64,000 nt of DNA from a virus. The first letter of the stretch is position 1, and the number at the start of each line of letters is the position of its first letter. The stretch covers positions 1 through 64,000 of IMG/VR virus record IMGVR_UViG_3300005253_000015; one strand, given 5' to 3'. Both the position numbers and the translations under genes were made by a program. The notes under the pieces are model-generated. The model was not told the origin of the DNA, made no database searches, and saw only the letters and a list, made by a program, of their open reading frames with translations. Below are positions 3,543 to 53,867 of this stretch, one piece after another.

Positions 3543-3549
3543 AAAAAAA
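3543..3549 (-). terminator. oligo-T terminator directly after the guide array
   Basis: T7 run on the minus strand 2 nt after the last (degenerate) edge repeat. Confidence 0.45.
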
Positions 3550-3551
3550 TT

Positions 3552-4672
3552 TTACTCGCTACATAGATTTGGTTTTCTTATACAAAATGACTCGTTTATC
3601 TCAATTGGTTTACTCTTTGTTGATGACTCGCTACCTTATTTTGGTTTTCTTATTACCCATGACTCGCTGTTCACCTATGGTTTTCTCGGAAATAATGACT
3701 CGCTCAATCCAATTGGTTTTCTCAACTTTTTTGACTCGTTAATCTAGCTTGGTTTTCTTATACGAAATGACTCGCTTAAGTCTTGTGGTTTCCTTCACTA
3801 AGATGACTCGCTATTTGTCATTGGTTTTCTTTTCTCTCATGACTCGCTAAAAACCGTTGGTTTTCTTAGATATTTTGACTCGCTACTCCGTAGTGGTTTT
3901 CTTCCTTCTTATGACTCGCATTATTTTAATGGTTTTCTATTGTTTAATGACTCGCTATCTTCTAATGGTTTTCCTAAGTCTTTTGACTCGCTTTCTTCAG
4001 ATGGGTTTCTTTTTTATAATAACTCGCTTCAATTTCTTGGTTTTCTAATATTTAGTGACTCGTTTAATTCATATGGTTTTCTATTCTTATATGACTCGCT
4101 ACTCCGTAGTGGTTTTCTTCTCTTATATGACTCGCTTATAGATTGTGGTTTTCTACAGATTGTTGACTCGCTATTTGTCATTGGTTTTCTTTTATTCTTT
4201 GACTCGCTATCTTCTAATGGTTTTCTGATTTTACTTGACTCGCTAATCTGATATGGATTTCTGATTTTACTTGACTCGCTAATCTGATATGGATTTCTTA
4301 TATTTAATGACTCGCTTATTTTTTATGTTTTTCTAAAATCATGTGACTCGCTACCTTATTTTGGTTTTCTTATTACCCATGACTCGCTGTTCACCTATGG
4401 GTTTCTCGGAAATAATGACTCGCTTAATGAATTTAGTTTTCTTATACTTCTTGACTCGCTAACTTATATTGGTTTTCTGTATTTATTTGACTCGCTTAGT
4501 ATTTATGGTTTTCTTGTTTAACATAACTCGCTATTGTTCAATGGTTTTCTTTAATATAATGACTCGTTCGGTAAAATTGGTTTTCTGATATCTAGTGACT
4601 CGCTAATCTCCAATGGGTTTCTTAAGTCTTTTGACTCGCTAAGGCGAAATGGTTTACTTGTTCTCTATGGCT
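3552..4672 (-). repeat. TIGR-type tandem interspaced guide RNA array: 31 units of 36 nt (AGTCA-N9-AGAAAACCA-N9-AGCG on the minus strand)
   Basis: On +, TGACTCGCT (with variants) starts at 3552+36k for k=0..30 with no indels. It alternates with TGGTTTTCT, and the two are separated by variable 9-nt spacers. The array abuts a Nop-domain gene. Confidence 0.93.
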
Positions 4673-5568
4673 TTTTCTTTTGGTACTAAAGTACCTTCCA
4701 TTTTAAGTGCTTTTCTCCATGTAATAATATTATCATGTAGTAAAACACCTTCAACATAATTCTTCTTAGCAGGTAAACCCATTATCTCTCTTGCACAATG
4801 CCAATAGTGGTCTAAAAAGATTTTCCTCATCTTTCTAAGTGCTCTATTATGAGCATGACCTTTACTTAATTTCGTGTCAGTTTTTTTATATGGTTTTCCG
4901 TATACCTCAAAAAGTGTATTAACATTATATTCTCTGTTTAACTGTTTTTCCTTTTCTGTATCATAAATCTGTCTATAATATCCTTTATTATGTATCAATA
5001 ATCCTTTAGATACCATCCATACTAAAGATTTCAATCTGGGATTATAATTAATAGTTTCTCCTTTTTTACGTTTTTGAGCTACTCCATTCACCACTGATTG
5101 ACCAGCATAAGCCCATAACTTACTAACTGTATCTGGTACGACATCACAATATCCTATTTCTTTTACTAGTTTGGCACTGATAACCTTATCTATACCTCGT
5201 ATCTTATCAAGAAAATCAATATATATAGCTTCATCTTTAACCAACTTCCCTAAACTCTTTTTAAACTCACGTTCAAGCGTCTTTACAGTAGGAATAGTTA
5301 CATCAAAAAATTTACTAATATAAGCCCCCTCTTCTGGTGTCACCCTACCTTCTTCTATTAGTTTATTTGCTAAAGGAAGTAACTTAGCATCAGCATATTT
5401 GGTATCAAAGGTTTTGCTCTCCTTTTTCTCTTCGACTTCATCGAAATCAATTCCCATATCAATCTTTCTGAGAATATCACGAATCTGATTCATAAAAATC
5501 TTTCGAACATTCTGGATAGATTCATATTCTACAGCATGTAATCTCAGAAGCACACGTTTTAAATTCAT
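4654..5568 (-). CDS. tasA: TIGR-associated Nop-domain RNA-guided DNA-binding protein without a nuclease domain (TasA type; IS110/Nop5-related)
   Basis: N-terminal coiled coil, then RGIDKVISAKL..EIG...TVSKLWAYAG...YNPRLKS...YYRQIYD..K...HAHNRALRKMRKIFL..YW. No RuvC/DEDD or HNH domain. The guide array starts at its 3' end. Confidence 0.85.
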   Translation of the reverse strand: MNLKRVLLRLHAVEYESIQNVRKIFMNQIRDILRKIDMGIDFDEVEEKKESKTFDTKYADAKLLPLANKLIEEGRVTPEEGAYISKFFDVTIPTVKTLEREFKKSLGKLVKDEAIYIDFLDKIRGIDKVISAKLVKEIGYCDVVPDTVSKLWAYAGQSVVNGVAQKRKKGETINYNPRLKSLVWMVSKGLLIHNKGYYRQIYDTEKEKQLNREYNVNTLFEVYGKPYKKTDTKLSKGHAHNRALRKMRKIFLDHYWHCAREIMGLPAKKNYVEGVLLHDNIITWRKALKMEGTLVPKEKAIENK

Positions 5569-6422
5569 AAAAGCCCAGCCTCTCTAAGTTGCTTAATTGT
5601 TGGAAAAGACGAATCTTTTTTCAGCATTACATTTTCTATTATATATGTAATTTGATTAGCTATTTCATCCCAGTATCCAAGCTTTGTAGCAATTCCTTTA
5701 ACTTCATTGTATAATGTTTCATAATGATATTTTGATGTCTTTACAGATGCTAATTCTTCCTTTAAATCAATTATTTCTTGTCGAAGGTCTAACTTTGTTT
5801 TTACTTTTTGCTTTGTTACCTTACCTTTTTTTTTAGGAGTTGTTAAATGTTTGATGTAGAGTCTATTGATTGACTTCTCTTTCCTCCCTCTCTCTAATTG
5901 GTCTAAGGCTTTCCTAACCTCTGGATTCGATTCAGCCTCTTTTTTAAGCTCTTTAAATTGATTTAATGCTTTTAATGTAGTATGTATTTCTCTAGCAGTC
6001 CTCTTAGTCTGTGCCAATTCCTGTATTTTACGTAAATTAACATCTTCTTGAACAGCAATACCATGCTCTTTTCTTATCCACTCTTCCATCTCAATACCAA
6101 TCTCTAATTTTGTACCGAGTGCCATATGTCTTCGGTCAAAATTACATAAGCTAATAATATCAACTAATGCTTCAGTACTACTTATATCTAAGTCTAAAAA
6201 ATATGGCTCTATTTCTGCCATTAGACATAGTATTAAACGAATTCGTCCATCTATAATCTCTTGAGTTGATTGGAGTCTTAGAATAGGATAATACTGTCCA
6301 CTCTTCTTCATTCTCTCTGCCATTGAAAGTAGTTCTCTTTCTGGTGGTATAGGGAAAAGTATACATAATGGATGAAACTTATGTTCTTCCATCTGTTTTG
6401 TTATATCTTTAAACACTTTCAT
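5565..6422 (-). CDS. ParB/Srx-like N-terminal domain protein with coiled-coil tail, translationally coupled to tasA
   Basis: FHPLCILFP...G...PI....IIDGRIRL..C....IEP.F...CN..RRH motif; ATGA overlap with tasA at 5565-5568. Confidence 0.75.
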   Translation of the reverse strand: MKVFKDITKQMEEHKFHPLCILFPIPPERELLSMAERMKKSGQYYPILRLQSTQEIIDGRIRLILCLMAEIEPYFLDLDISSTEALVDIISLCNFDRRHMALGTKLEIGIEMEEWIRKEHGIAVQEDVNLRKIQELAQTKRTAREIHTTLKALNQFKELKKEAESNPEVRKALDQLERGRKEKSINRLYIKHLTTPKKKGKVTKQKVKTKLDLRQEIIDLKEELASVKTSKYHYETLYNEVKGIATKLGYWDEIANQITYIIENVMLKKDSSFPTIKQLREAGLL

Positions 6423-6684
6423 ATTCTTTACCTCTTATTTTTTTATTTATATTATAGCCCAAGAAACTTATAAGAGTTTATACTTGGACATCTCTTAATA
6501 AAAAAAAGGTAATTAAAAATTTTATAATCGTGCCATCATTATTAACCTGTCAAGTTGTTTAAGTGGTATATCATTTTCTTTACAATAATTCTTCAATTCA
6601 TCAAACATTGCAAATTTATGTTTTATGATAATACTAAATACAGCTACAACATGTAGGTCAAAGTCTTCTATATCTACCATATTA

Positions 6685-6969
6685 TTATCCACCTTCAACA
6701 TCGTTAACATATTCTCTTGTTAGAGACCATAAAACATGTGGTCTTCCACGCTTTTCATTATATAATGTCTCCTTGATAAGAATATCTCGTTCTAATAATT
6801 TCTTTAGATTATCATATATAGTGGTTCGTGGAGTTTCCAGTTCTGATACAAATGTAGAACGTGAATAAATATTATTTCTCCACAATAACTCAATTATTTC
6901 ATTTTGTATATATGTTAATCTCTTAAACTTGTCCTTCATTTTTTTATATCCTCTGTTACTTTTTTCCAT
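6685..6969 (-). CDS. winged-helix (TrmB-like) transcription regulator
   Basis: PRTTIYDNLKKL...KRGRP.VLW. Confidence 0.7.
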   Translation of the reverse strand: MEKSNRGYKKMKDKFKRLTYIQNEIIELLWRNNIYSRSTFVSELETPRTTIYDNLKKLLERDILIKETLYNEKRGRPHVLWSLTREYVNDVEGG

Positions 6970-7175
6970 TCATCAAATAATTCAGCAAAACAACTGCTTA
7001 CATCCGTAAGTAAAATTCTTATCTCTTCAATTGTACCATTAATTTGATGTAATTGTGATTGTAATGATGAATACGCTCCATAACACTTCCTTATCTGAGC
7101 CTTTATATCCTTATGTTCCTCATCAATCTTTTTTGAAACATTCTCCATAAGATAACACCAAAAAAAAAAAGAAGT

Positions 7176-8471
7176 TTAGATAAATTGTACTAAATCCTTC
7201 TGAGAATCATCGTCATCAAATTCTATAACATCAGCTCTGGAAATAGATTTACCAAGATTAGAAACAAATGTGTCTGGTTGCCGTAAAATTCTCATGACAT
7301 TATCATATGCAGTCATTCTTGCAGCCTCAGTCTCAGCCATACTACTCGCCCAATCCATTACTGTATATGCCACACCCTCAAGTGTACTGGGATATCCTTT
7401 ACTTTCTTTTATCTTGATTAAATCATTCATTTTGTTAGACATTTTTAACTGCAATCCAAGAGCATTTTTACCATCTTCATTAACAGCATCAAACTCAATT
7501 GCTACACCTCTGGATTCACAAGTAGTTAGATTCCCGAACAGATTAGCTATTAAGTCACTCTTACCAAGTATTTTTTTTACTCCGAACACTAATGTTTCCT
7601 TGAAAACCTCTGGGTCACCTACATGTTTTAAGGCAATAGATAACTCAACGGTACGTATCACTAGTTCAATATCTTCATCTGGTAAACAAACATATCCAGT
7701 AATAACAAGTTTTTTACTTTTAAACTCAGAATTAATTACTGAACAGCCAACCAAAGTCGGTCTATCATTAATCAATACTGGATTTGAGCTAACAAAATTA
7801 CCTCTTGATACAAGAGCCGTAGCATATCCAGATTGAAACACTATATCTGTATTATTTTTCTTAGCTTCGTCAAAACATATCTGCATTGTTTCACCATCTG
7901 GTTGATGAACATACTTCCCAGTAACATAGCACCTACCATCACCATCTTCCGATGCTGTGGCAAAATCCCATACTCTATGACAAATCACGGGACTCGTACG
8001 ACTATTCTTATTCCGTCTAATATCCCAAACACTAACAAATATTTCATTCAGTTTGATGATATTCTCAGTACTTGGAATGAAATTACCATCCTCACCCATT
8101 AATTTATCAAGCTTTTTATCAACATTATATACAGTTTCAACCATATGTGTAAGGTCTCCAAGCTGTAATATATCTCTCGTAAATTGTGTGAAAGCGTATG
8201 CTGGGGATTCTATAAAATCATCACTTATATCATCATACTCTTTAGTTACCACATCATATTCTTTAGCTATTTCGCAATGAAGCCTGTACACTTCCTCAGA
8301 AGGTACATACACGAAAGAATAAAAATTCTTTATGTATATCCTTTCGACAATCCTTTCATCATCAATAACCTTCATCATTCCCTCAAAAGTCTTAAATCTT
8401 AATATTCTACGGGAAAGAGAAATGCTATGATTGATGTAATCAAATTTTATCAATTTTTTTTTACTCTCCAA
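7176..8471 (-). CDS. hypothetical protein, C-terminal half DUF932-like
   Basis: 431-aa ORF with G.SVINSE....L.I.G..C...LKHVG segment; family call is tentative. Confidence 0.4.
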   Translation of the reverse strand: MESKKKLIKFDYINHSISLSRRILRFKTFEGMMKVIDDERIVERIYIKNFYSFVYVPSEEVYRLHCEIAKEYDVVTKEYDDISDDFIESPAYAFTQFTRDILQLGDLTHMVETVYNVDKKLDKLMGEDGNFIPSTENIIKLNEIFVSVWDIRRNKNSRTSPVICHRVWDFATASEDGDGRCYVTGKYVHQPDGETMQICFDEAKKNNTDIVFQSGYATALVSRGNFVSSNPVLINDRPTLVGCSVINSEFKSKKLVITGYVCLPDEDIELVIRTVELSIALKHVGDPEVFKETLVFGVKKILGKSDLIANLFGNLTTCESRGVAIEFDAVNEDGKNALGLQLKMSNKMNDLIKIKESKGYPSTLEGVAYTVMDWASSMAETEAARMTAYDNVMRILRQPDTFVSNLGKSISRADVIEFDDDDSQKDLVQFI

Positions 8472-9428: not shown

Positions 9429-9569
9429 TTAAACACCTCTACAATAAGTACATTCATCATCACAATAAGGACATCCATATTTACTCTCATAAATAATAGA
9501 TTCAGAACAATTATGATGAAAATGTCTTTTCTTACGTCCACATGTACAATACCCTATACTTAAACTCAT
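9429..9569 (-). CDS. small Cys-rich protein (46 aa, not in the ORF track)
   Basis: MSLSIGYCTCG...CPYCDDECTYCRGV*; ATGA overlap with the AAA gene stop. Confidence 0.5.
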   Translation of the reverse strand: MSLSIGYCTCGRKKRHFHHNCSESIIYESKYGCPYCDDECTYCRGV

Positions 9570-11104
9570 AAATCCAACCTCATACTCTTCGGAATTTCCT
9601 TATTAGAAGTAGTTGGTCTAGCTCTATCCCTAGCCCAGAGTCTCATTTTACTAATTGGTTCTGCCATAGTTTTGCTTAGTGGAATTGACCTTTTAAGATT
9701 TGCCATTATATAATCTGTATCCAATTCAACTCCATCATCATACGCATCAAATAATCCAGAAACTATAGATGCCTCAATCTCAGCTCCACTGTATTGTACA
9801 GAATTATCAATTAATGAAGGTAAATCGAATTGTTCGAAATCTCTTTTTCTCTTTGTTAGATGGATTCTGAAAATATCAAACCGTTCATCTTCATTAGGAA
9901 GGTCAACAAAGAATATCTCATCTAATCTTCCTTTTCTTAATAATTCTGGTGGCAAATTAGTAATATCGTTCGCAGTGGCAACTACAAAAATAGGGGCTTG
10001 ATTTTCTTGTAGAAAGGTAAGGAAACTACCAATAACTCTAGATGTAGTACCACCATCGCTAAAATTAGAACTGCCACTACCCCCTAAAGCTTTCTCTATT
10101 TCATCAATCCATAAAACACATGGACTACAAGCCTTAGCCAACTGTATAGCAGCACTCATATTCCTCTCAGAGCTCCCAACTATTCCTTCAAAAATAGCAC
10201 TCATATCCATTCGTAGTAAGGGAAAGTTCCATACATTTGCAACAATCTTACAAATAAGGCTTTTTCCACACCCTTGAACTCCAAGCAGAAGCATACCCTT
10301 TGGATAAGGCAACCCAAAATCACGTGCCTTATCCGTAAACGCATTCTTCCTCTGAATTATCCATTTCATTAAAATATCATTGCCACCAACATCTTCAAGT
10401 GTATTAGTGGTATGAGTATATTCCAATATCCCAGTTTTACGTATTATTTGTTCTTTCTCCTTTATGATAGTATTAACTGAAAAATTTTTATTCTGTATCA
10501 ATGATTTATATAAAACATTCTCGATTTCATTAGTATTCAAGCCCATTAAAGCCTTTATTACATGCTCTCTTTTTCCATTAGTTTCAACCCTAGCGTCATC
10601 TTTAACACTTTCAGCTACAGTATTACAAATATCGTTAATTTCATCTTTATCTGGTAAAGGAAAATCAATAACAGTAATATCCTTTTCCAAGTCAGATGGT
10701 ATGCTAAGCTCTGGAGCAATAATAACAACGTTCTTCTGTACTAACTTTAATGATTTATTCAATTCCCTAAGATAACGTACTATCTCTGGGTTTGAATCTA
10801 TCATAAAAGCATGAAAGTCCAAAAGAATAAAAATACCCCTTTTCTTGATATTATTGATAAAATGTAATGCTTCAATAGGATTCATAGTTGCTGTGTTTAC
10901 CGTAGTTATATCTTTCAATTCCCGTATACCACATACCAAAGACCAAACATATATAGTAGGTGAATTCTCTATAGACCTTCTAGTGATATCATTAATACTC
11001 TGGATAACTCTATCTTCCTCACTAGATACCACATAAATTAACGGATATCTAGCTCTGATAAGTATATCAATCTCTTTTATCTCTTTCATTTTTTTTTCAT
11101 TCAT
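9566..11104 (-). CDS. Ycf46-like AAA+ ATPase
   Basis: Walker A GVQGCGKS, Walker B LWIDEIEK, ATAN..LPPELLRKGRLDEIFFVDLP; degenerate N-terminal AAA domain. Confidence 0.9.
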   Translation of the reverse strand: MNEKKMKEIKEIDILIRARYPLIYVVSSEEDRVIQSINDITRRSIENSPTIYVWSLVCGIRELKDITTVNTATMNPIEALHFINNIKKRGIFILLDFHAFMIDSNPEIVRYLRELNKSLKLVQKNVVIIAPELSIPSDLEKDITVIDFPLPDKDEINDICNTVAESVKDDARVETNGKREHVIKALMGLNTNEIENVLYKSLIQNKNFSVNTIIKEKEQIIRKTGILEYTHTTNTLEDVGGNDILMKWIIQRKNAFTDKARDFGLPYPKGMLLLGVQGCGKSLICKIVANVWNFPLLRMDMSAIFEGIVGSSERNMSAAIQLAKACSPCVLWIDEIEKALGGSGSSNFSDGGTTSRVIGSFLTFLQENQAPIFVVATANDITNLPPELLRKGRLDEIFFVDLPNEDERFDIFRIHLTKRKRDFEQFDLPSLIDNSVQYSGAEIEASIVSGLFDAYDDGVELDTDYIMANLKRSIPLSKTMAEPISKMRLWARDRARPTTSNKEIPKSMRLDL

Positions 11105-13886: not shown

Positions 13887-15194
13887 TTATATTACTAAGT
13901 GTCTAATCGCAATAGTACCATCTTTATACCTAACGGCATATCTACTAAGATTATGACTCCCATTCCATCCACTACAAAATTTATGTACCCAATCAAGAAA
14001 GTATGTATATTCAATACCCTCTGAGATATACGCCTTAATTAAAGTAGAATGTCCATACCTACCTCTATCATCTAATCTGCTCCAAGATACTAAATCCTTA
14101 GACCATAGATATGGTAAATAATCTACATAATCAGATACAACAGAAACATCATGGTCTCTTAACTGTCTTAACCATCTACGATACTGCAAGTTATTTCCAT
14201 ATATCTTTCTCTCCCAATAACTACGCCTTCTCTGATATGCCTTCCATTCTGTATCACTTTTTCTATCACGCCCAGCATTACGATTCCAATAATTATCATA
14301 CTCCGTCAACCCTAATATAATCTTTGCTAAACGGTCATCTTTGGCTTTAACATATTGGTAAACATCTCTTATGAATATATCCATATTAGCACATACTCTT
14401 AAATGATATAATGCACGAAGGAATATAGAATTATTCGCATTTTCCATATCAATATTATATAAACGGATACAACCAAATACTATTTCTCGATAACTATTCA
14501 TTACAAACTCTTTTCTCTCACGTGTTTTATATTCCTTCCACATAGTATCAAGATGAGTCAATAAGCTATGAAATATATGTATATCCTTATGACATAATTC
14601 TTTTAATAATGGCATAGCTAAGTTACTATGTAGCACATTCGGGTTGTATTTATTCTCAACCCAAGCTTGAATATTACTACAATGCCCCCAAAACTCTGTT
14701 TCTGGTGGTATAAGATGCTCTTCACTATTATCAGTGACTTCCATCTCACCTGAATACTTTCTTTGAAACTCATCTATATTTACACAATTCTCATCCTCAG
14801 CTTCCATAGTTGGTATATTTATGAGCAAAAACATACATTGGAAAAATCTTTTACCGTTAATGAATATGTCTGTCCTATCTCCAATAAGACGTAAGTCAAT
14901 AAACTCATTAATAACATACTTCTTGAACTCTGTTTTATTATAACATGTCTTACAATAAGGTTCACCTTCATAACCGTATTTAATATCACCAAGCATATTA
15001 TAACTAATCTGACATTTAGTACATAGTACATGTTCGTCCTTTCTCTTATTATAACATTTATGACATATAACTGTGCCATGCCCTATATCATTAACGTAAT
15101 ATACATTATCTTTATGGAAAGACAATCGACAGTAATGACAGATTACCCAATCAGAATCACTATTACCATTTACGTCCTTAATTATTTCTTCCAT
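13887..15194 (-). CDS. Zn-finger protein fused to a domain of a Lokiarchaeia-expanded protein family
   Basis: Four CxxC pairs, then INEFIDLRL...T.IFING..F.QC.FLLINIP...IDE...IPPETEFWGHCSNIQAW.EN.Y...LHSNLA.PLLK.L. Confidence 0.7.
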   Translation of the reverse strand: MEEIIKDVNGNSDSDWVICHYCRLSFHKDNVYYVNDIGHGTVICHKCYNKRKDEHVLCTKCQISYNMLGDIKYGYEGEPYCKTCYNKTEFKKYVINEFIDLRLIGDRTDIFINGKRFFQCMFLLINIPTMEAEDENCVNIDEFQRKYSGEMEVTDNSEEHLIPPETEFWGHCSNIQAWVENKYNPNVLHSNLAMPLLKELCHKDIHIFHSLLTHLDTMWKEYKTRERKEFVMNSYREIVFGCIRLYNIDMENANNSIFLRALYHLRVCANMDIFIRDVYQYVKAKDDRLAKIILGLTEYDNYWNRNAGRDRKSDTEWKAYQRRRSYWERKIYGNNLQYRRWLRQLRDHDVSVVSDYVDYLPYLWSKDLVSWSRLDDRGRYGHSTLIKAYISEGIEYTYFLDWVHKFCSGWNGSHNLSRYAVRYKDGTIAIRHLVI

Positions 15195-35522: not shown

Positions 35523-36164
35523 TTAATTAATCTTAGTATTGGGGTCACCAATAAGTTTTGTATGCTTAATATTCCACTCTGTACTTTTTGCGTACCAGTC
35601 ATAGTTACGATAACCAGACTTAGCTTTATATATATTAAGATATTTGGTAGCACGTTTAACAAATAAATTATATGCTTCCCCAAAGGTTTTACCGTCTAAT
35701 ATAGCTTTATCCTTGACGGTTGTATAATCTATCCACGATGATAAATAATTATACTCTTTTTCTGGAAATGCTGCATAGTATAATTCATCAGTTCCAATAT
35801 AGGCTTTAACACCTTTCTTAATAGCAGCAACACCAAGCTCCTTAAGTGATAGACATGCCATAGTGCTAACACCAGCCCCTTTTAATTTATGTATATTTTT
35901 AATATTAATTATTGACCTAATAGCATTGATACCAATTAATCTATTCTTTTCTCCATGACCATAATATATAATTAAATCATAACCCTTTTTTAGTGCTGTT
36001 TTCCAACTGAAAAAAGCTCGATTTGCTCCTAAACCCCATAGATAATCAATATCGAGGTCATATTTAGTTGCTGCATAGTTCATAAGCTCAGCAATTGCAA
36101 GATTTGATGTTATTGTAGGAATATCTTGAAGAGGACTGATAATAAGAATTTTAGCTTTATTCAT
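35523..36164 (-). CDS. clan CD (gingipain/C25/caspase-like) cysteine protease-fold protein
   Basis: LIIYYGHG and STMACLS His/Cys dyad motifs; G.KAYIG. Confidence 0.65.
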   Translation of the reverse strand: MNKAKILIISPLQDIPTITSNLAIAELMNYAATKYDLDIDYLWGLGANRAFFSWKTALKKGYDLIIYYGHGEKNRLIGINAIRSIINIKNIHKLKGAGVSTMACLSLKELGVAAIKKGVKAYIGTDELYYAAFPEKEYNYLSSWIDYTTVKDKAILDGKTFGEAYNLFVKRATKYLNIYKAKSGYRNYDWYAKSTEWNIKHTKLIGDPNTKIN

Positions 36165-50405: not shown

Positions 50406-53400
50406 ATGGCTGGTAAAGGTTCAAAACAACTTGTTCGGGAACTCATTAATTTCTATAAGGTAAATAGAGGTGGATATCCATACGAGATTATTTATAAATT
50501 AATCCAACTCTATCAAGTAATAGAAGATGTATACTCCGTCTCCACTGTGATAGAACTCCAAGAAGCTATTGATAATATAGGAACTGATGCTGGTACTATT
50601 TTTATAGCTTCTGGAACTTATGATGTCACTACAACAATAGATATTGATAATTGTGGTTCACTTGTTATATATGGGCATGGAGACAATACAATTCTTAAAG
50701 CCGCTGATGGTATTACGATATTTAATATAACATGTGTTGCTTCTTGTCTAATAAAGACATTAAAATTGGATATTACTAACTATACGGGAGATACTCAAGC
50801 CGTTTTAATTAATGAAACTAATAATAATATTGTTGGTTTTGAAGATGTATCTATTCTTGGAGCAGCGGCAAATGGTATAGGCATTGAAGTTCAATCCGAT
50901 AACTGTTATATTGACCAATGTAATATACTACAAATGAAAACGGGCATTTATTTGAATGGAGCTGAGAAAACAAAAATAACTGGAACTCTCTCTGGTCTTC
51001 ATGTTAATTACGGGCTTCATTTAAATCAAGCAGATTTTAGTATTATTACTGGAAATTCTTTTACTGCTAATACTTCTTATGGTATATATATTTATAATAG
51101 TGATTATTGTATTATTTCCAATACTGGATGTACGAGTAATCTTACTGGAATGTATTCGGATATTTCAAATTATAATACAATATCATCATGTTTATCTAAT
51201 AGTAATTCGGAAAATGGTATATTTATAACTCAAGGCAATTATAATACAATATCAAGTAATACATTAAACAACAATGACTCTAATATAGCTGGTAATACTG
51301 CTGGATTATATATCACTAATAACTCTGATTTTAATACTATAACTGCTAACTCTATTAATAATAACAATAATTCTGGTGCTGGTACTGCTTACGGTATCTA
51401 TATTGCTACAGCTGATTGTGATGAGAATGTAGTTGCCTCTAATAATGCTAACGGGAATGATGTAGATTATCAAGACTCTGGAACATCCACAACTGTAATA
51501 TATTATGTTCAAAATAGTGATGAGCTTCAAGACGCAATAGACTCTATTGGTTCTAGTGCTGGGACAATATACATTAATTCTAGCTTTACTGTATCAACTA
51601 CTATTGATATTGATGGTGGTGGAAGCTATCTTATCGAAGGCGAAGGTAGTAATACAGTTTTAACTACTGGTATTGATATAAAATGTTTGAATGTAGACCT
51701 AGCTCGTCAATGTATATTACGGAACTTCAGAATTGACGCTAGTGCGTATACTGCTGCTGGTGTGGCACTGGAAATAATAGATGTTAATGAGAATAATAAT
51801 GATTTAGTTATATTAGATAATGTATCTATTACTGGAGATGGTACTAATGGATACGGAATTGAATTAAATTCTAACAATTGTAGGATTGAAAATTGTGAGA
51901 TAGATAATATAAGTATCGGTATTAATATTTTATCAACTAATAATATAATCTCTGGTAATAATGTTAATAACTGTAATACATATGGGATTCAAATAAGCTC
52001 AGCTAATACTAACAATGTAACAACAAACATCGTAGATAGCAACACAACTGGTATATATTTATCATCATCTGATTATGTTTTAGTAAGTGGGAATTCAGTA
52101 AACACTAATACTGAAAACGGTATAGAGCTCACTGGTAGTGATTATACTAATATTAGTGGGAATTCATGTATAGGGAATGATTCAAGTACAGCAAATCCTC
52201 AAGCTGGAATGTATATAAGCACAGACTCTAACAATAATAGTATTATTGGAAACACTATTATCAATAATAATAATGCTGGTGCTGGAATTGGATACGGAGT
52301 ATATATAGGAACAGCTACTTGTGATGAGAATATAGTTCGCTCTAATAATATTTCTGGAAATGATACACAGTGGGGTGATACTGGTACTAATACTCAAATA
52401 GAATATTTCTGTCTAACTGAGGGTCATATACAAGATGCTGTAGATTCTATAGCTGGTAAGGCTGGTACGATAATTATTGGAGAGGTTACCATTGCTATTA
52501 CAACTGGCATAACTGTAGATAATGCTACCGCAAAGATACGCATTATTGGGAAAGGACAACCATCTATATTACAACCAACTATTGGTATCACAGTATTTAC
52601 ATTTACAAATGCTTATGAGCTTCATTTAGAAGCCTTTTATATAGATATGGATAATTATACAGCAGATACTACAAAAGCAATATTCAATAATGGTGCTAAT
52701 TGTTTAAGACAAACTTACGAAGATATAACATTCGAGGGAACAGCTGATGGGATTGCGATATATAATTCTGGTGATTCTATTACTGTTAATAATTGTTATT
52801 TTAACAATGTATTTAATTGTATATACATTACGGGTTCTGTTGTAGCTTTTAAAATCACTGGTAACGAATTCTGGACTATTAGAGATAGTTCTGTTTATAT
52901 TGATTATGGTGAACAAGGTGTTATTGCCAATAATATAGCTGATGCTACTGGTGGTAAACCCGTTATAGATGTAATTCGAGGTAAATATATATCTATATCA
53001 AATAATCAAATCATTACGGGTGGAAGTACAGCTACTAATGGTTCATCAATACAAATAACTGGTGCTGTTGCCAGTAGTGATATTCAGATAGTAGGTAATA
53101 CCATCAGAAGTACAAATTCAAGTGGCACTACTAATAGTATGGTATACATGAGTGGTACTGTTTCTCGAATAACAATATCTTCTAATGTAATCATTTCCTA
53201 TACTAATAGTGATGATTCTTGGGGTATAATAATAGAGGATGCTACAGTTATAGATTGTACTATCACTGGGAATAGTATTTATGCTTTCGGGGGTATTAAA
53301 GTAGTAAATGCTGATAATATGGTTATCTCTGGGAACAAAATTACTGGTAATACTTCTTTAAAACAATCTGGTATATTATTAGAAGGGTCAATTGGAAATG

Positions 53401-53867
53401 CAATAACATCAAATATTATTGATGGAGTATCTGTTAACTTTGGTACGGATGTCAATGGGATATCATTAACTTCCGTATCGACTGATAATATTATTGCGAA
53501 CAATCGAATACTTGATATGGCTAATGCGGGAGCTGGAGATGGTTATGGAATAATTATAGCTGCGGGATGTAATAATAATGTTATATCTGGAAATGTAATT
53601 ACGAGTTGTGATACTAACTTGTCTGATGCGGGGACTGGAACTATATTATTTGGCGATGATACTGCCTACGGAGCTGGTTGGAACGGGGACTTAGGCACTC
53701 CGACCAAGAATGTTATATATGACCAATTTGTAGCTACTTTAGCTGCTGCTGTTGCTTTAATATCTGATACTGCTTATGCGGCAAGTTGGGATGGAGTCAC
53801 TACAATTGCTCCGAGTAAGAATGCTGTATATGATAAAATACAAGCTCTTATTGCTGTATGGGGTTAA
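50406..53867 (+). CDS. large spike/adhesin with three tandem parallel beta-helix (NosD/CASH-like) modules
   Basis: Repeated (L/I)Q.A.D.I...AGTI module starts and GIY....N.I..N repeats; ends in AYAASWDGVTTIAPSKNAVYDKIQALIAVWG. Confidence 0.8.
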   Translation: MAGKGSKQLVRELINFYKVNRGGYPYEIIYKLIQLYQVIEDVYSVSTVIELQEAIDNIGTDAGTIFIASGTYDVTTTIDIDNCGSLVIYGHGDNTILKAADGITIFNITCVASCLIKTLKLDITNYTGDTQAVLINETNNNIVGFEDVSILGAAANGIGIEVQSDNCYIDQCNILQMKTGIYLNGAEKTKITGTLSGLHVNYGLHLNQADFSIITGNSFTANTSYGIYIYNSDYCIISNTGCTSNLTGMYSDISNYNTISSCLSNSNSENGIFITQGNYNTISSNTLNNNDSNIAGNTAGLYITNNSDFNTITANSINNNNNSGAGTAYGIYIATADCDENVVASNNANGNDVDYQDSGTSTTVIYYVQNSDELQDAIDSIGSSAGTIYINSSFTVSTTIDIDGGGSYLIEGEGSNTVLTTGIDIKCLNVDLARQCILRNFRIDASAYTAAGVALEIIDVNENNNDLVILDNVSITGDGTNGYGIELNSNNCRIENCEIDNISIGINILSTNNIISGNNVNNCNTYGIQISSANTNNVTTNIVDSNTTGIYLSSSDYVLVSGNSVNTNTENGIELTGSDYTNISGNSCIGNDSSTANPQAGMYISTDSNNNSIIGNTIINNNNAGAGIGYGVYIGTATCDENIVRSNNISGNDTQWGDTGTNTQIEYFCLTEGHIQDAVDSIAGKAGTIIIGEVTIAITTGITVDNATAKIRIIGKGQPSILQPTIGITVFTFTNAYELHLEAFYIDMDNYTADTTKAIFNNGANCLRQTYEDITFEGTADGIAIYNSGDSITVNNCYFNNVFNCIYITGSVVAFKITGNEFWTIRDSSVYIDYGEQGVIANNIADATGGKPVIDVIRGKYISISNNQIITGGSTATNGSSIQITGAVASSDIQIVGNTIRSTNSSGTTNSMVYMSGTVSRITISSNVIISYTNSDDSWGIIIEDATVIDCTITGNSIYAFGGIKVVNADNMVISGNKITGNTSLKQSGILLEGSIGNAITSNIIDGVSVNFGTDVNGISLTSVSTDNIIANNRILDMANAGAGDGYGIIIAAGCNNNVISGNVITSCDTNLSDAGTGTILFGDDTAYGAGWNGDLGTPTKNVIYDQFVATLAAAVALISDTAYAASWDGVTTIAPSKNAVYDKIQALIAVWG

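Follow-up and report, generated by a model that had tools for sequence, protein, structure and literature searches.

The virus record IMGVR_UViG_3300005253_000015 of IMG/VR, of which the first 64 kb were analysed here (the window), carries on its minus strand a gene for a ParB-like protein, a tasA gene and an array of two short alternating repeats, which together very likely constitute a TIGR-Tas system of the dual-repeat class and of TasParB-TasA type, encoded by a complete 111-kb virus, probably of Asgard archaea, and binding DNA without cutting it. This assignment is based on the anatomy of the array, the homology and the folds of the two proteins, the conservation of a processing dyad in TasA, the gene order in related loci and the absence of self-targets, all of which are described below. 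TIGR-Tas systems with their TasA, TasH and TasR proteins and 36-nt tigRNAs have been defined by Faure et al. (Science 2025, PMC12045711), who also described tasParB-tasA operons with dual-repeat arrays. In addition, seven of seven checked segments of row AF-A0A0F9UCN5 in Data S1 of that study are exact substrings of the TasA of the window, three of them distinguishing it from its 93%-identical relative, and the protein is on record in NCBI and UniRef. As the operon type is known and the protein is part of a published mining set, the locus cannot claim novelty and is to be seen as a well-read known system rather than as a discovery.

Anatomy of the TIGR array

The minus-strand anchor GCGAGTCA occurs, with two mismatches at most, 31 times in the window and at a spacing of always exactly 36 nt, and the combined edge and loop pattern is matched 30 times compared with 0.05 matches expected from 100 dinucleotide-preserving shuffles. 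Outside the array, this pattern identifies no TIGR unit in the 111-kb virus genome. Column statistics of the 30 full units resolve the 36-nt unit into a 9-nt edge repeat, A|GCGAGTCA (that is, AGCGAGTCA), with an information content near 2 bits per column, followed by spacer A (9 nt, columns 9-17), the loop repeat AGAAAACCA, likewise of 9 nt, and spacer B (9 nt, columns 27-35), both spacers being near-random. The strict 36-nt periodicity with two 9-nt repeats and two 9-nt spacers per unit, as described in an earlier sequence-only reading of this DNA, is thus confirmed by anchor spacing, column conservation and shuffled controls, and an array of this design next to a tas gene belongs to the dual-repeat class.

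The 30 complete units, which hold 28 distinct guide pairs, extend over positions 3560-4640 (minus strand) and are preceded by a leading unit with a degenerate edge (4641..4676, minus strand). As read from the sequence, this unit is situated inside the 3' end of tasA, with its loop variant AGTAAACCA including the TAA stop codon of the gene, an overlap likewise present in the related contigs L077 and L078. Since the leading unit adds to the 30 full ones, the earlier count of 31 units was a fair one. On the distal side, the 31st anchor is a terminal truncated edge repeat, GCGAGTAA (3552-3559), followed by a run of seven T, which together (3543..3559, minus strand) can represent a terminator; an end consisting of a truncated edge and a T-run agrees with the published description of TIGR array termini. 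Published dual-repeat arrays average approximately 16 units, as compared with the 30 units found here.

TasA, a Tas protein without nuclease domain

The 304-aa protein encoded at 4654..5568 (minus strand) consists of a coiled coil and a Nop-type C-terminal domain homologous to the characterised Tas proteins. Among PDB sequences, a phmmer search with the protein retrieves TaTasR (9MTY) at 1.2e-28 and SpTasH at 1.3e-12, the corresponding values for a family profile of 46 homologs being 2.7e-51 and 1.4e-25 respectively, and the NCBIfam model NF052498.1, 'TIGR-Tas system RNA-guided endonuclease', is matched with 146.6 bits at a cut-off of 100. A weak match to Pfam Transposase_20 is also observed. 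The AlphaFold2 model, with a predicted local distance difference test score (pLDDT) of 88.5 and a predicted template modelling score of 0.83, is all-helical, the C-terminal domain being preceded by a long coiled coil that begins at residue 3. Foldseek ranks as its structural relatives TasR, TasH, the IS110-family recombinases ISCro4 and IS621, and Nop5 in this order (E-values of 1e-10 for TaTasR, 9e-4 for ISCro4, 4e-3 for IS621 and 0.2 for Nop5), by which the Nop-type fold, for which a structural check had been proposed, is confirmed. On the level of sequence alignment, the TasA family profile matches no IS110 structure at E <= 0.01.

Neither Pfam nor NCBIfam nor the AlphaFold2 model, which leaves no room for such a domain, indicates an HNH, RuvC or beta-rich domain, and the alignment with TaTasR begins past the RuvC part of the latter, at chain residue 138-148. 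The earlier claim that the Tas protein possesses neither RuvC nor HNH is hence borne out, and a Nop domain to which no such nuclease is fused defines the TasA subclass. Tyrosine Y271 and histidine H278 align in the HMMER alignment with Y289 and H296 of SpTasH, the residues that process pre-tigRNA (PMC13421893); H278 is present in all of the 46 homologs and Y271 in at least 90% of them, a conservation consistent with metal-independent pre-tigRNA processing by this dyad. Deposited phages do not encode a close relative of TasA, the best match showing 32% identity over part of the protein.

The ParB-like partner protein

The product of the second gene (5565..6422, minus strand) is a TasParB-like protein of 285 aa with a ParB/Srx N-domain, a helix-turn-helix (HTH)-like middle, a basic flexible linker, a coiled coil and the C-terminal tail FPTIKQLREAGLL. 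Pfam yields no match for the protein alone, and its fold becomes visible with a family profile and by fold search. When a profile built from three sequences was run with HMMER against 1.84 billion representative proteins, 3217 were retrieved at E <= 0.001, most of them matching residues 11-118 only and approximately 18 matching over the full length. A profile of 45 matches in turn finds Spo0J (1vz0, 5e-10), ParB, Noc and a 'ParB domain protein nuclease', and the AlphaFold2 model (pLDDT 83) retrieves Spo0J, pNOB8 ParB-N, ParB-CDP, Noc and KorB with a Foldseek probability of 1.0 each, so that profile and fold search concur in confirming the ParB/Spo0J fold of this protein, which the first reading had called ParB-like from the sequence. 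TasParB is characterized by a ParB fold and by an operon that its gene shares with tasA and a dual-repeat array, and such an arrangement is present here.

Within the full-length family, residues H17, P24, G42 and I47, the D58-G59-x-x-R62 motif and R97-R98 are kept along with the HTH-like middle, the basic linker, which is of low confidence, and the coiled coil; D58, G59, R62 and R98 do not vary at all and R97 hardly does. The motif reads DGRIR at residues 58-62 here, with RR at 97-98, and DGRVR, DGKNR, DGRNR, DGRHR or DGTHR in other family members (DG[R/K/T]xR), such that the D-G-x-x-R skeleton, but not the F-H of the published DGFHR motif, is retained. The C-terminal tail, PTxKQLREAEL, persists even in family members with only 25% identity. 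A search of IMG/VR with the N-domain retrieved 80 phage ParB/Srx loci (L079-L158), none of which possesses TasA, an array or the REAEL tail; the linkage with TasA is therefore specific to the tailed subfamily of these proteins. The 80 loci themselves represent a large family of phage N-domains of the ParB/Srx kind, in which the motif is of the DG[RK]NR type and which is unlinked to TasA. In the wider ParB/Srx protein set, two members are fused to MT-A70 methyltransferase domains.

Operon structure and related loci

The open reading frames (ORFs) of 285 and 304 aa share both the strand (minus) and an ATGA overlap, the interval of the ParB-like gene starting at 5565, within that of tasA, which extends to 5568; the coupling of the two genes, as noted from the sequence, is hence confirmed. 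The region upstream (6423..6521, minus strand) is AT-rich and intergenic and contains a TATA-like stretch and a GAGGT ribosome-binding site, and from the sequence it can be read as a putative operon promoter. The upstream neighbour of the ParB-like gene encodes a winged-helix protein of 94 aa (6685..6969, minus strand), a candidate regulator with weak matches to Pfam HTH_20, TrmB and PadR and with a conserved position, as homologs are encoded directly upstream of the ParB-like gene in L077 (74% identity), L078 (45%) and the distant L002 (41%). The gene order winged-helix protein, ParB-like protein, TasA and array is found in all four loci, the window and these three relatives.

Tas homologs with 36-nt arrays are found in 19 loci, 16 from IMG/VR and three from contigs of metagenome-assembled genomes (MAGs), which agree with the window in their repeat consensus and show the edge repeat GCGAGCCA and a loop repeat close to GA(A/G)A(A/C)CCA. 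Three of the related loci also encode the ParB-like protein, namely L077 (SDBV01086805.1; TasA 93% and ParB-like protein 74% identical), L078 (LAZR01002118.1; 80% and 57%) and L002, a 224-kb IMG/VR contig (38% and 25%). In L002, 21 units separate the ParB-like gene from tasA and no fewer than 13 more follow downstream (5105-5862 and 7140-7678); a few of these units are 37 nt long or out of register. In L055 (G003:C135:1943-2782), a TasA homolog on a contig binned to Cloacimonadota, the gene contains one in-frame TGA, which may be explained by a defective gene, by recoding of the codon or by a sequencing error.

Further upstream in the window, a 431-aa protein (7176-8471, minus strand) without match in Pfam, PHROG, NCBIfam and PADLOC has a counterpart of 60% identity in L078, which there too is encoded in synteny upstream of the module. 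A 512-aa AAA ATPase (9566-11104, minus strand) aligns along its entire length with phrog_8638 (5.6e-141), matches IetA of PADLOC (1.5e-21) and shows approximately 31% identity to mycobacteriophage AAA ATPases; its synteny with the TIGR module is likewise retained in L078.

Guides, targets and turnover of the array

The repeats differ by one or two bases from those of the TaTasR tigRNA1 (edge UGCG|AGCCA, loop UGAAACCCA), the synthetic form of which is AGCCA-UGCAAGCCC-UGAAACCCA-UUGCCUUAG-UGCG in Table S3 of Faure et al. (PMC12045711), and the box C/D-like edge and the loop of the validated tigRNAs are thus recognized on the tas strand. Given this near-identity, the mature guide, read from the tasA strand, is predicted to be 5'-AGUCA-A9-AGAAAACCA-B9-AGCG-3', where A9 and B9 denote the two spacers. 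The target strand of TaTasR tigRNA1 consists of TGCAAGCCC followed by CTAAGGCAA, that is spacer A and then the reverse complement of spacer B (PMC12045711). By analogy, each guide of the array is predicted to have a target that reads A followed by the reverse complement of B, and the target rule given in the sequence-only reading agrees with these published oligonucleotides.

When the 28 distinct guides are compared with the 111-kb virus in this arrangement, with gaps of 0-2, and in both opposite-strand arrangements, no site with one mismatch or less is found, and matches with two to three mismatches equal the same-strand controls. In IMG/VR, the two duplicated guides have one and four exact matches, compared with two and eight in the control arrangement, which is chance level. 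Guides 7 and 21 have no match in 161 genomes of the class of an archaeal MAG with a related locus, and the built-in controls also have none.

The 30 full units contain 26 distinct A and 24 distinct B half-spacers, combined into the 28 distinct pairs. Units 7-8 recur as units 27-28, and units 10, 11 and 12 are composed as (A3,B3), (A2,B3) and (A2,B2), which, judging from the order of the half-spacers, would be the expected product of one unequal crossover at the loop repeat. Further half-spacers recur in other pairings within the array, and two are identical to half-spacers of related viruses, A21 in L077 and A23 in L078, whereas none recurs in approximately 230 units of more distant arrays. 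Such shuffling and sharing of half-spacers indicates that the turnover of the arrays is far quicker than that of the proteins and that half-units are what is exchanged. The MAG contigs L052 (1094-1345) and L054 (733-1020) carry the same TIGR array except that the unit TAAAGTTAA / TGTATCCAT is duplicated in L054, a pair which, as far as the two sequences tell, is a direct example of array change through unit duplication.

Virus and host

The IMG/VR record is 111,456 bp long, has 121-bp direct terminal repeats, a G+C content of 30% and a CheckV completeness of 100%. Most of its proteins have no match in Pfam or PHROGs, and no close relatives of the virus are found among deposited phages. The host is probably an Asgard (Lokiarchaeia-like) archaeon, for which the evidence is circumstantial: in a viral protein of 435 aa (13887-15194, minus strand), a domain of approximately 115 aa (residues ~88-202) has named homologs exclusively in Asgard archaea, namely Promethearchaeota, Lokiarchaeota/Lokiarchaeia and Hod-, Thor-, Hel- and Sigynarchaea. 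Many of these homologs are encoded on long contigs and fused to leucine-rich repeat, tetratricopeptide repeat or small-GTPase (Rab-like) domains, and the domain is multi-copy, with up to 23 copies, in seven of 61 genomes sampled from the phylum of the archaeal MAG with a related TIGR locus. The named homologs of TasA include proteins from Odinarchaeota, Promethearchaeota and Hodarchaeota MAGs as well as LCGC14 marine-sediment proteins. These findings lend circumstantial support to the probable Asgard archaeal virus that had been proposed. Short contigs with close TasA homologs are binned to Anaerolineales, Saccharibacteria, Cloacimonadota and Ignavibacteria as well as to archaea; such bins of short contigs were judged unreliable and used neither for nor against an Asgard host.

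Outside the window, the virus record encodes an ERCC4+HhH (XPF/Mus81-type) nuclease (90516-91577, plus strand), ThyX (100698-101381, minus strand) and a protein with an RNase H-like RVT_3 domain (102190-103203, minus strand). Within the window, a 1153-aa protein (50406-53867, plus strand) with NosD/right-handed beta-helix repeats is likely a fibre or depolymerase, and a 213-aa protein (35523-36164, minus strand) has a weak match to peptidase C25.

Proposed mechanism and alternative readings

We infer that a single minus-strand transcription unit comprises the ParB-like gene, tasA and the array, which begins inside the last codons of tasA. The subsequent steps, from 36-nt processing through the pairing rule to repression by TasA, are modelled on published relatives. 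A TasA dimer, joined via its coiled coil, would bind the box C/D-like edge and the loop repeats and cut the precursor within the edge repeats by means of the Y271/H278 dyad, with 36-nt tigRNAs of the predicted form as products. Each of these ribonucleoproteins (RNPs) may then recognize an 18-bp site, its spacers A and B pairing with opposite DNA strands. As TasA lacks a nuclease domain, it would stay bound and act as a roadblock or repressor and not as a cutter. The co-translated ParB-like protein may serve as an accessory at or after the sites bound by TasA, and the absence of targets in the virus's own genome suggests that the system is aimed at other DNA, that of the host or of competing mobile elements.

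Several points speak against this binding-only model of a single co-transcribed TasParB-TasA operon. The array may have a separate promoter, and no target has been found for any guide among those scanned against the virus, IMG/VR and the 161 archaeal-class genomes. The DNA-binding or repressing proteins MbTasA and PlTasA use stem-loop guides, not dual repeats, and the ParB-like partner may have an enzymatic role. Moreover, the canonical CTPase signature of ParB proteins is lost in the partner, as DGRIR replaces GERRxR, the QPR box is absent and the Glu before N94 is not conserved, the position varying between C, L, M, R, I and T in the family. Upon alignment of the family profile to Spo0J, DGRnR is placed opposite GERRyR and a variable hydrophobic residue opposite the catalytic Glu, which renders a classical sliding-clamp role of the protein doubtful. 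The proposal of the sequence-only reading that the ParB-like protein is loaded at programmed sites is, with the canonical CTPase motifs not kept, not supported as stated and is pure inference. A role as a programmable 'parS', in which TasA RNPs recruit the ParB-like protein either for silencing and spreading or for tethering and partition of the episome on host DNA, nevertheless deserves to be weighed, and we consider it conceivable if rather doubtful. The translational coupling and the conservation of the operon in four of four loci are in line with such a role, as are the HTH, the basic linker and the coiled coil of the protein, and its tail, conserved to 25% identity and absent from the 80 phage loci without TasA, could be a docking or dimerisation peptide. 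A complex of two TasA and two TasParB molecules has indeed been modelled with AlphaFold3, but the model shows weak contact between TasA and TasParB (Faure et al., 2025; PMC12045711), and besides the lost CTP-clamp motifs, there are no self-targets to act as viral centromeres and no host targets for guides 7 and 21 in the 161 genomes. In a specific form of this idea, which is tentative and on balance improbable, the TasA RNPs would provide approximately 28 RNA-programmed sites of loading or docking for a non-canonical ParB-like protein on the DNA of the Asgard host or of rival elements, with the REAEL tail as the docking element and the winged-helix protein as third component. If this were true, the virus would possess a programmable 'parS' to silence, compact or hitch onto foreign chromosomes.

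It seems unlikely to us that the system acts chemically, with TasA finding the site and the ParB/Srx partner being the effector enzyme, for instance one that nicks or cleaves DNA, acts as an NTPase or, like DndB, reads or writes DNA modifications. Nucleases occur among proteins of the ParB/Srx fold, and one of the top matches of both profile and structure searches is a pNOB8-like ParB-N with the deposited name 'ParB domain protein nuclease'; moreover, the pattern of invariant residues (D58, G59, R62, R98 and nearly R97) combined with the loss of the canonical CTPase residues would suit an enzyme, and the conserved DGFHR of TasParB resembles the DGQHR of DndB, on account of which 'an alternative enzymatic function' has been proposed (Faure et al., 2025; PMC12045711). 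Catalytic residues, however, cannot be assigned from the sequence of the ParB-like protein, its best overall matches are the DNA-binding partition proteins Spo0J, ParB and Noc, with the HTH region included, and DGRIR differs from the published DGFHR. The description of the locus as a nuclease-less binder accordingly holds for TasA, which has no nuclease domain, but is not proven for the whole system, as the ParB/Srx domain could be an enzyme. It is highly improbable that the locus represents a remnant which is inert or in decay, or an array of another kind such as CRISPR, a coding repeat or satellite DNA. The lack of identified targets would fit a remnant, and the duplication of two adjacent units and the recurrence of several half-spacers are as in passively recombining repeats, but the repeat columns are nearly invariant next to near-random spacer columns, the strict 36-nt phase is maintained over 1.1 kb, both ORFs are intact and conserved with the Y/H dyad kept, and many relatives show the same anatomy. 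ORFs spanning the array are found on the opposite strand only and are repeat artefacts, and Rfam has no family for the array. A CRISPR-Cas locus, which would have a single repeat of 25-36 nt and spacers about as long, is rejected on the grounds of two different 9-nt repeats, 9-nt spacers, the lack of a cas gene and the lack of a PADLOC defence family for either TasA or the ParB-like protein. A TasParB-TasA system that binds DNA hence remains the preferred reading of the locus.

Significance

TIGR-Tas is a young field of compact RNA-guided DNA binders that do not require a protospacer-adjacent motif. The role of the nuclease-free TasA and especially of the ParB-like partner is an acknowledged question for the whole TasParB-TasA class, as are the natural targets. 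The locus opens no new class and by itself contributes nothing new on the origin of box C/D RNPs, on which it had been expected to bear, but it is a clean natural example, with a complete virus genome, an intact operon, 30 guide units, two close relatives and one distant relative for comparison, and is therefore a reasonable choice for testing the role of TasParB. The analysis makes small additions, namely the winged-helix neighbour, the DGRxR variant with the lost CTPase residues, the tail by which the ParB-like proteins linked to TasA are distinguished, the overlap of the first array unit with the 3' end of tasA, the evidence for half-spacer exchange and the circumstantial evidence for an Asgard host. 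If confirmed, the latter would add a host range unmentioned in the literature searched.

Comparison with known systems

The CTP-dependent clamps Spo0J, ParB, Noc and KorB share the N-domain and HTH fold with the ParB-like protein, but are equipped with GERRxR, the catalytic Glu and the QPR box, in place of which DGRIR, no conserved Glu before N94 and no QPR are found here. More distant structural relatives of TasA with the same RNA-binding domain are the IS110 recombinases and archaeal Nop5 of the box C/D RNP, from which TasA differs by the absence of a DEDD/RuvC domain, of a fibrillarin-binding domain and of a single bridge RNA, its guides being arrayed. An IS110 transposon was considered as an identity of the locus and rejected, as the protein has no RuvC domain and reaches only 21.9 bits with the NCBIfam model transpos_IS110, the cut-off of which is 140.

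As to the nuclease-free relatives, a bioRxiv preprint with a catalogue of 6,685 arrays reports a TasA that represses transcription and binds DNA without cutting it (Xu et al., 2026; 10.64898/2026.09.09.750476), and a second preprint gives the structure of PlTasA on its target (Guan et al., 2026; 10.64898/2026.08.11.744272). MbTasA and PlTasA are, like the TasA of the window, nuclease-free and bind target DNA in an RNA-guided manner, with MbTasA also repressing transcription, but they are without the Y/H loop, are of bacterial or gut origin and have no reported ParB partner.

The closest correspondence in design is with the TasParB-TasA systems of Faure et al., against which the locus was set by their description. 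These likewise consist of a ParB-like gene and a nuclease-free tasA in an operon, with a dual-repeat array adjoining or in between, and of a partner protein with a ParB fold and a C-terminal dimerisation region. Their TasParB motif is DGFHR and their repeats are 10 nt long, as opposed to DGRIR and 9 nt here. An Asgard-virus setting and a winged-helix neighbour are not mentioned by Faure et al., and in the literature searched, the term 'TasParB' is used only by these authors and no substantive link between TIGR-Tas and Asgard viruses was found.

The closest solved relative of the TasA of the window is TaTasR of a Thermoproteota archaeon (PDB 9MTY), the repeats of which are GCGAGCCA / GAAACCCA as compared with GCGAGTCA / GAAAACCA here, with 9-nt spacers and 36-nt guides in both. 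TaTasR possesses an N-terminal RuvC nuclease and cuts both strands, whereas TasA here starts at the coiled coil without RuvC. SpTasH of Salicola phage CGphi29 (PDB 9W03/9W04) carries an N-terminal HNH nuclease, which is missing from TasA, but shares with it the Nop domain and, as Y289/H296, the processing dyad.

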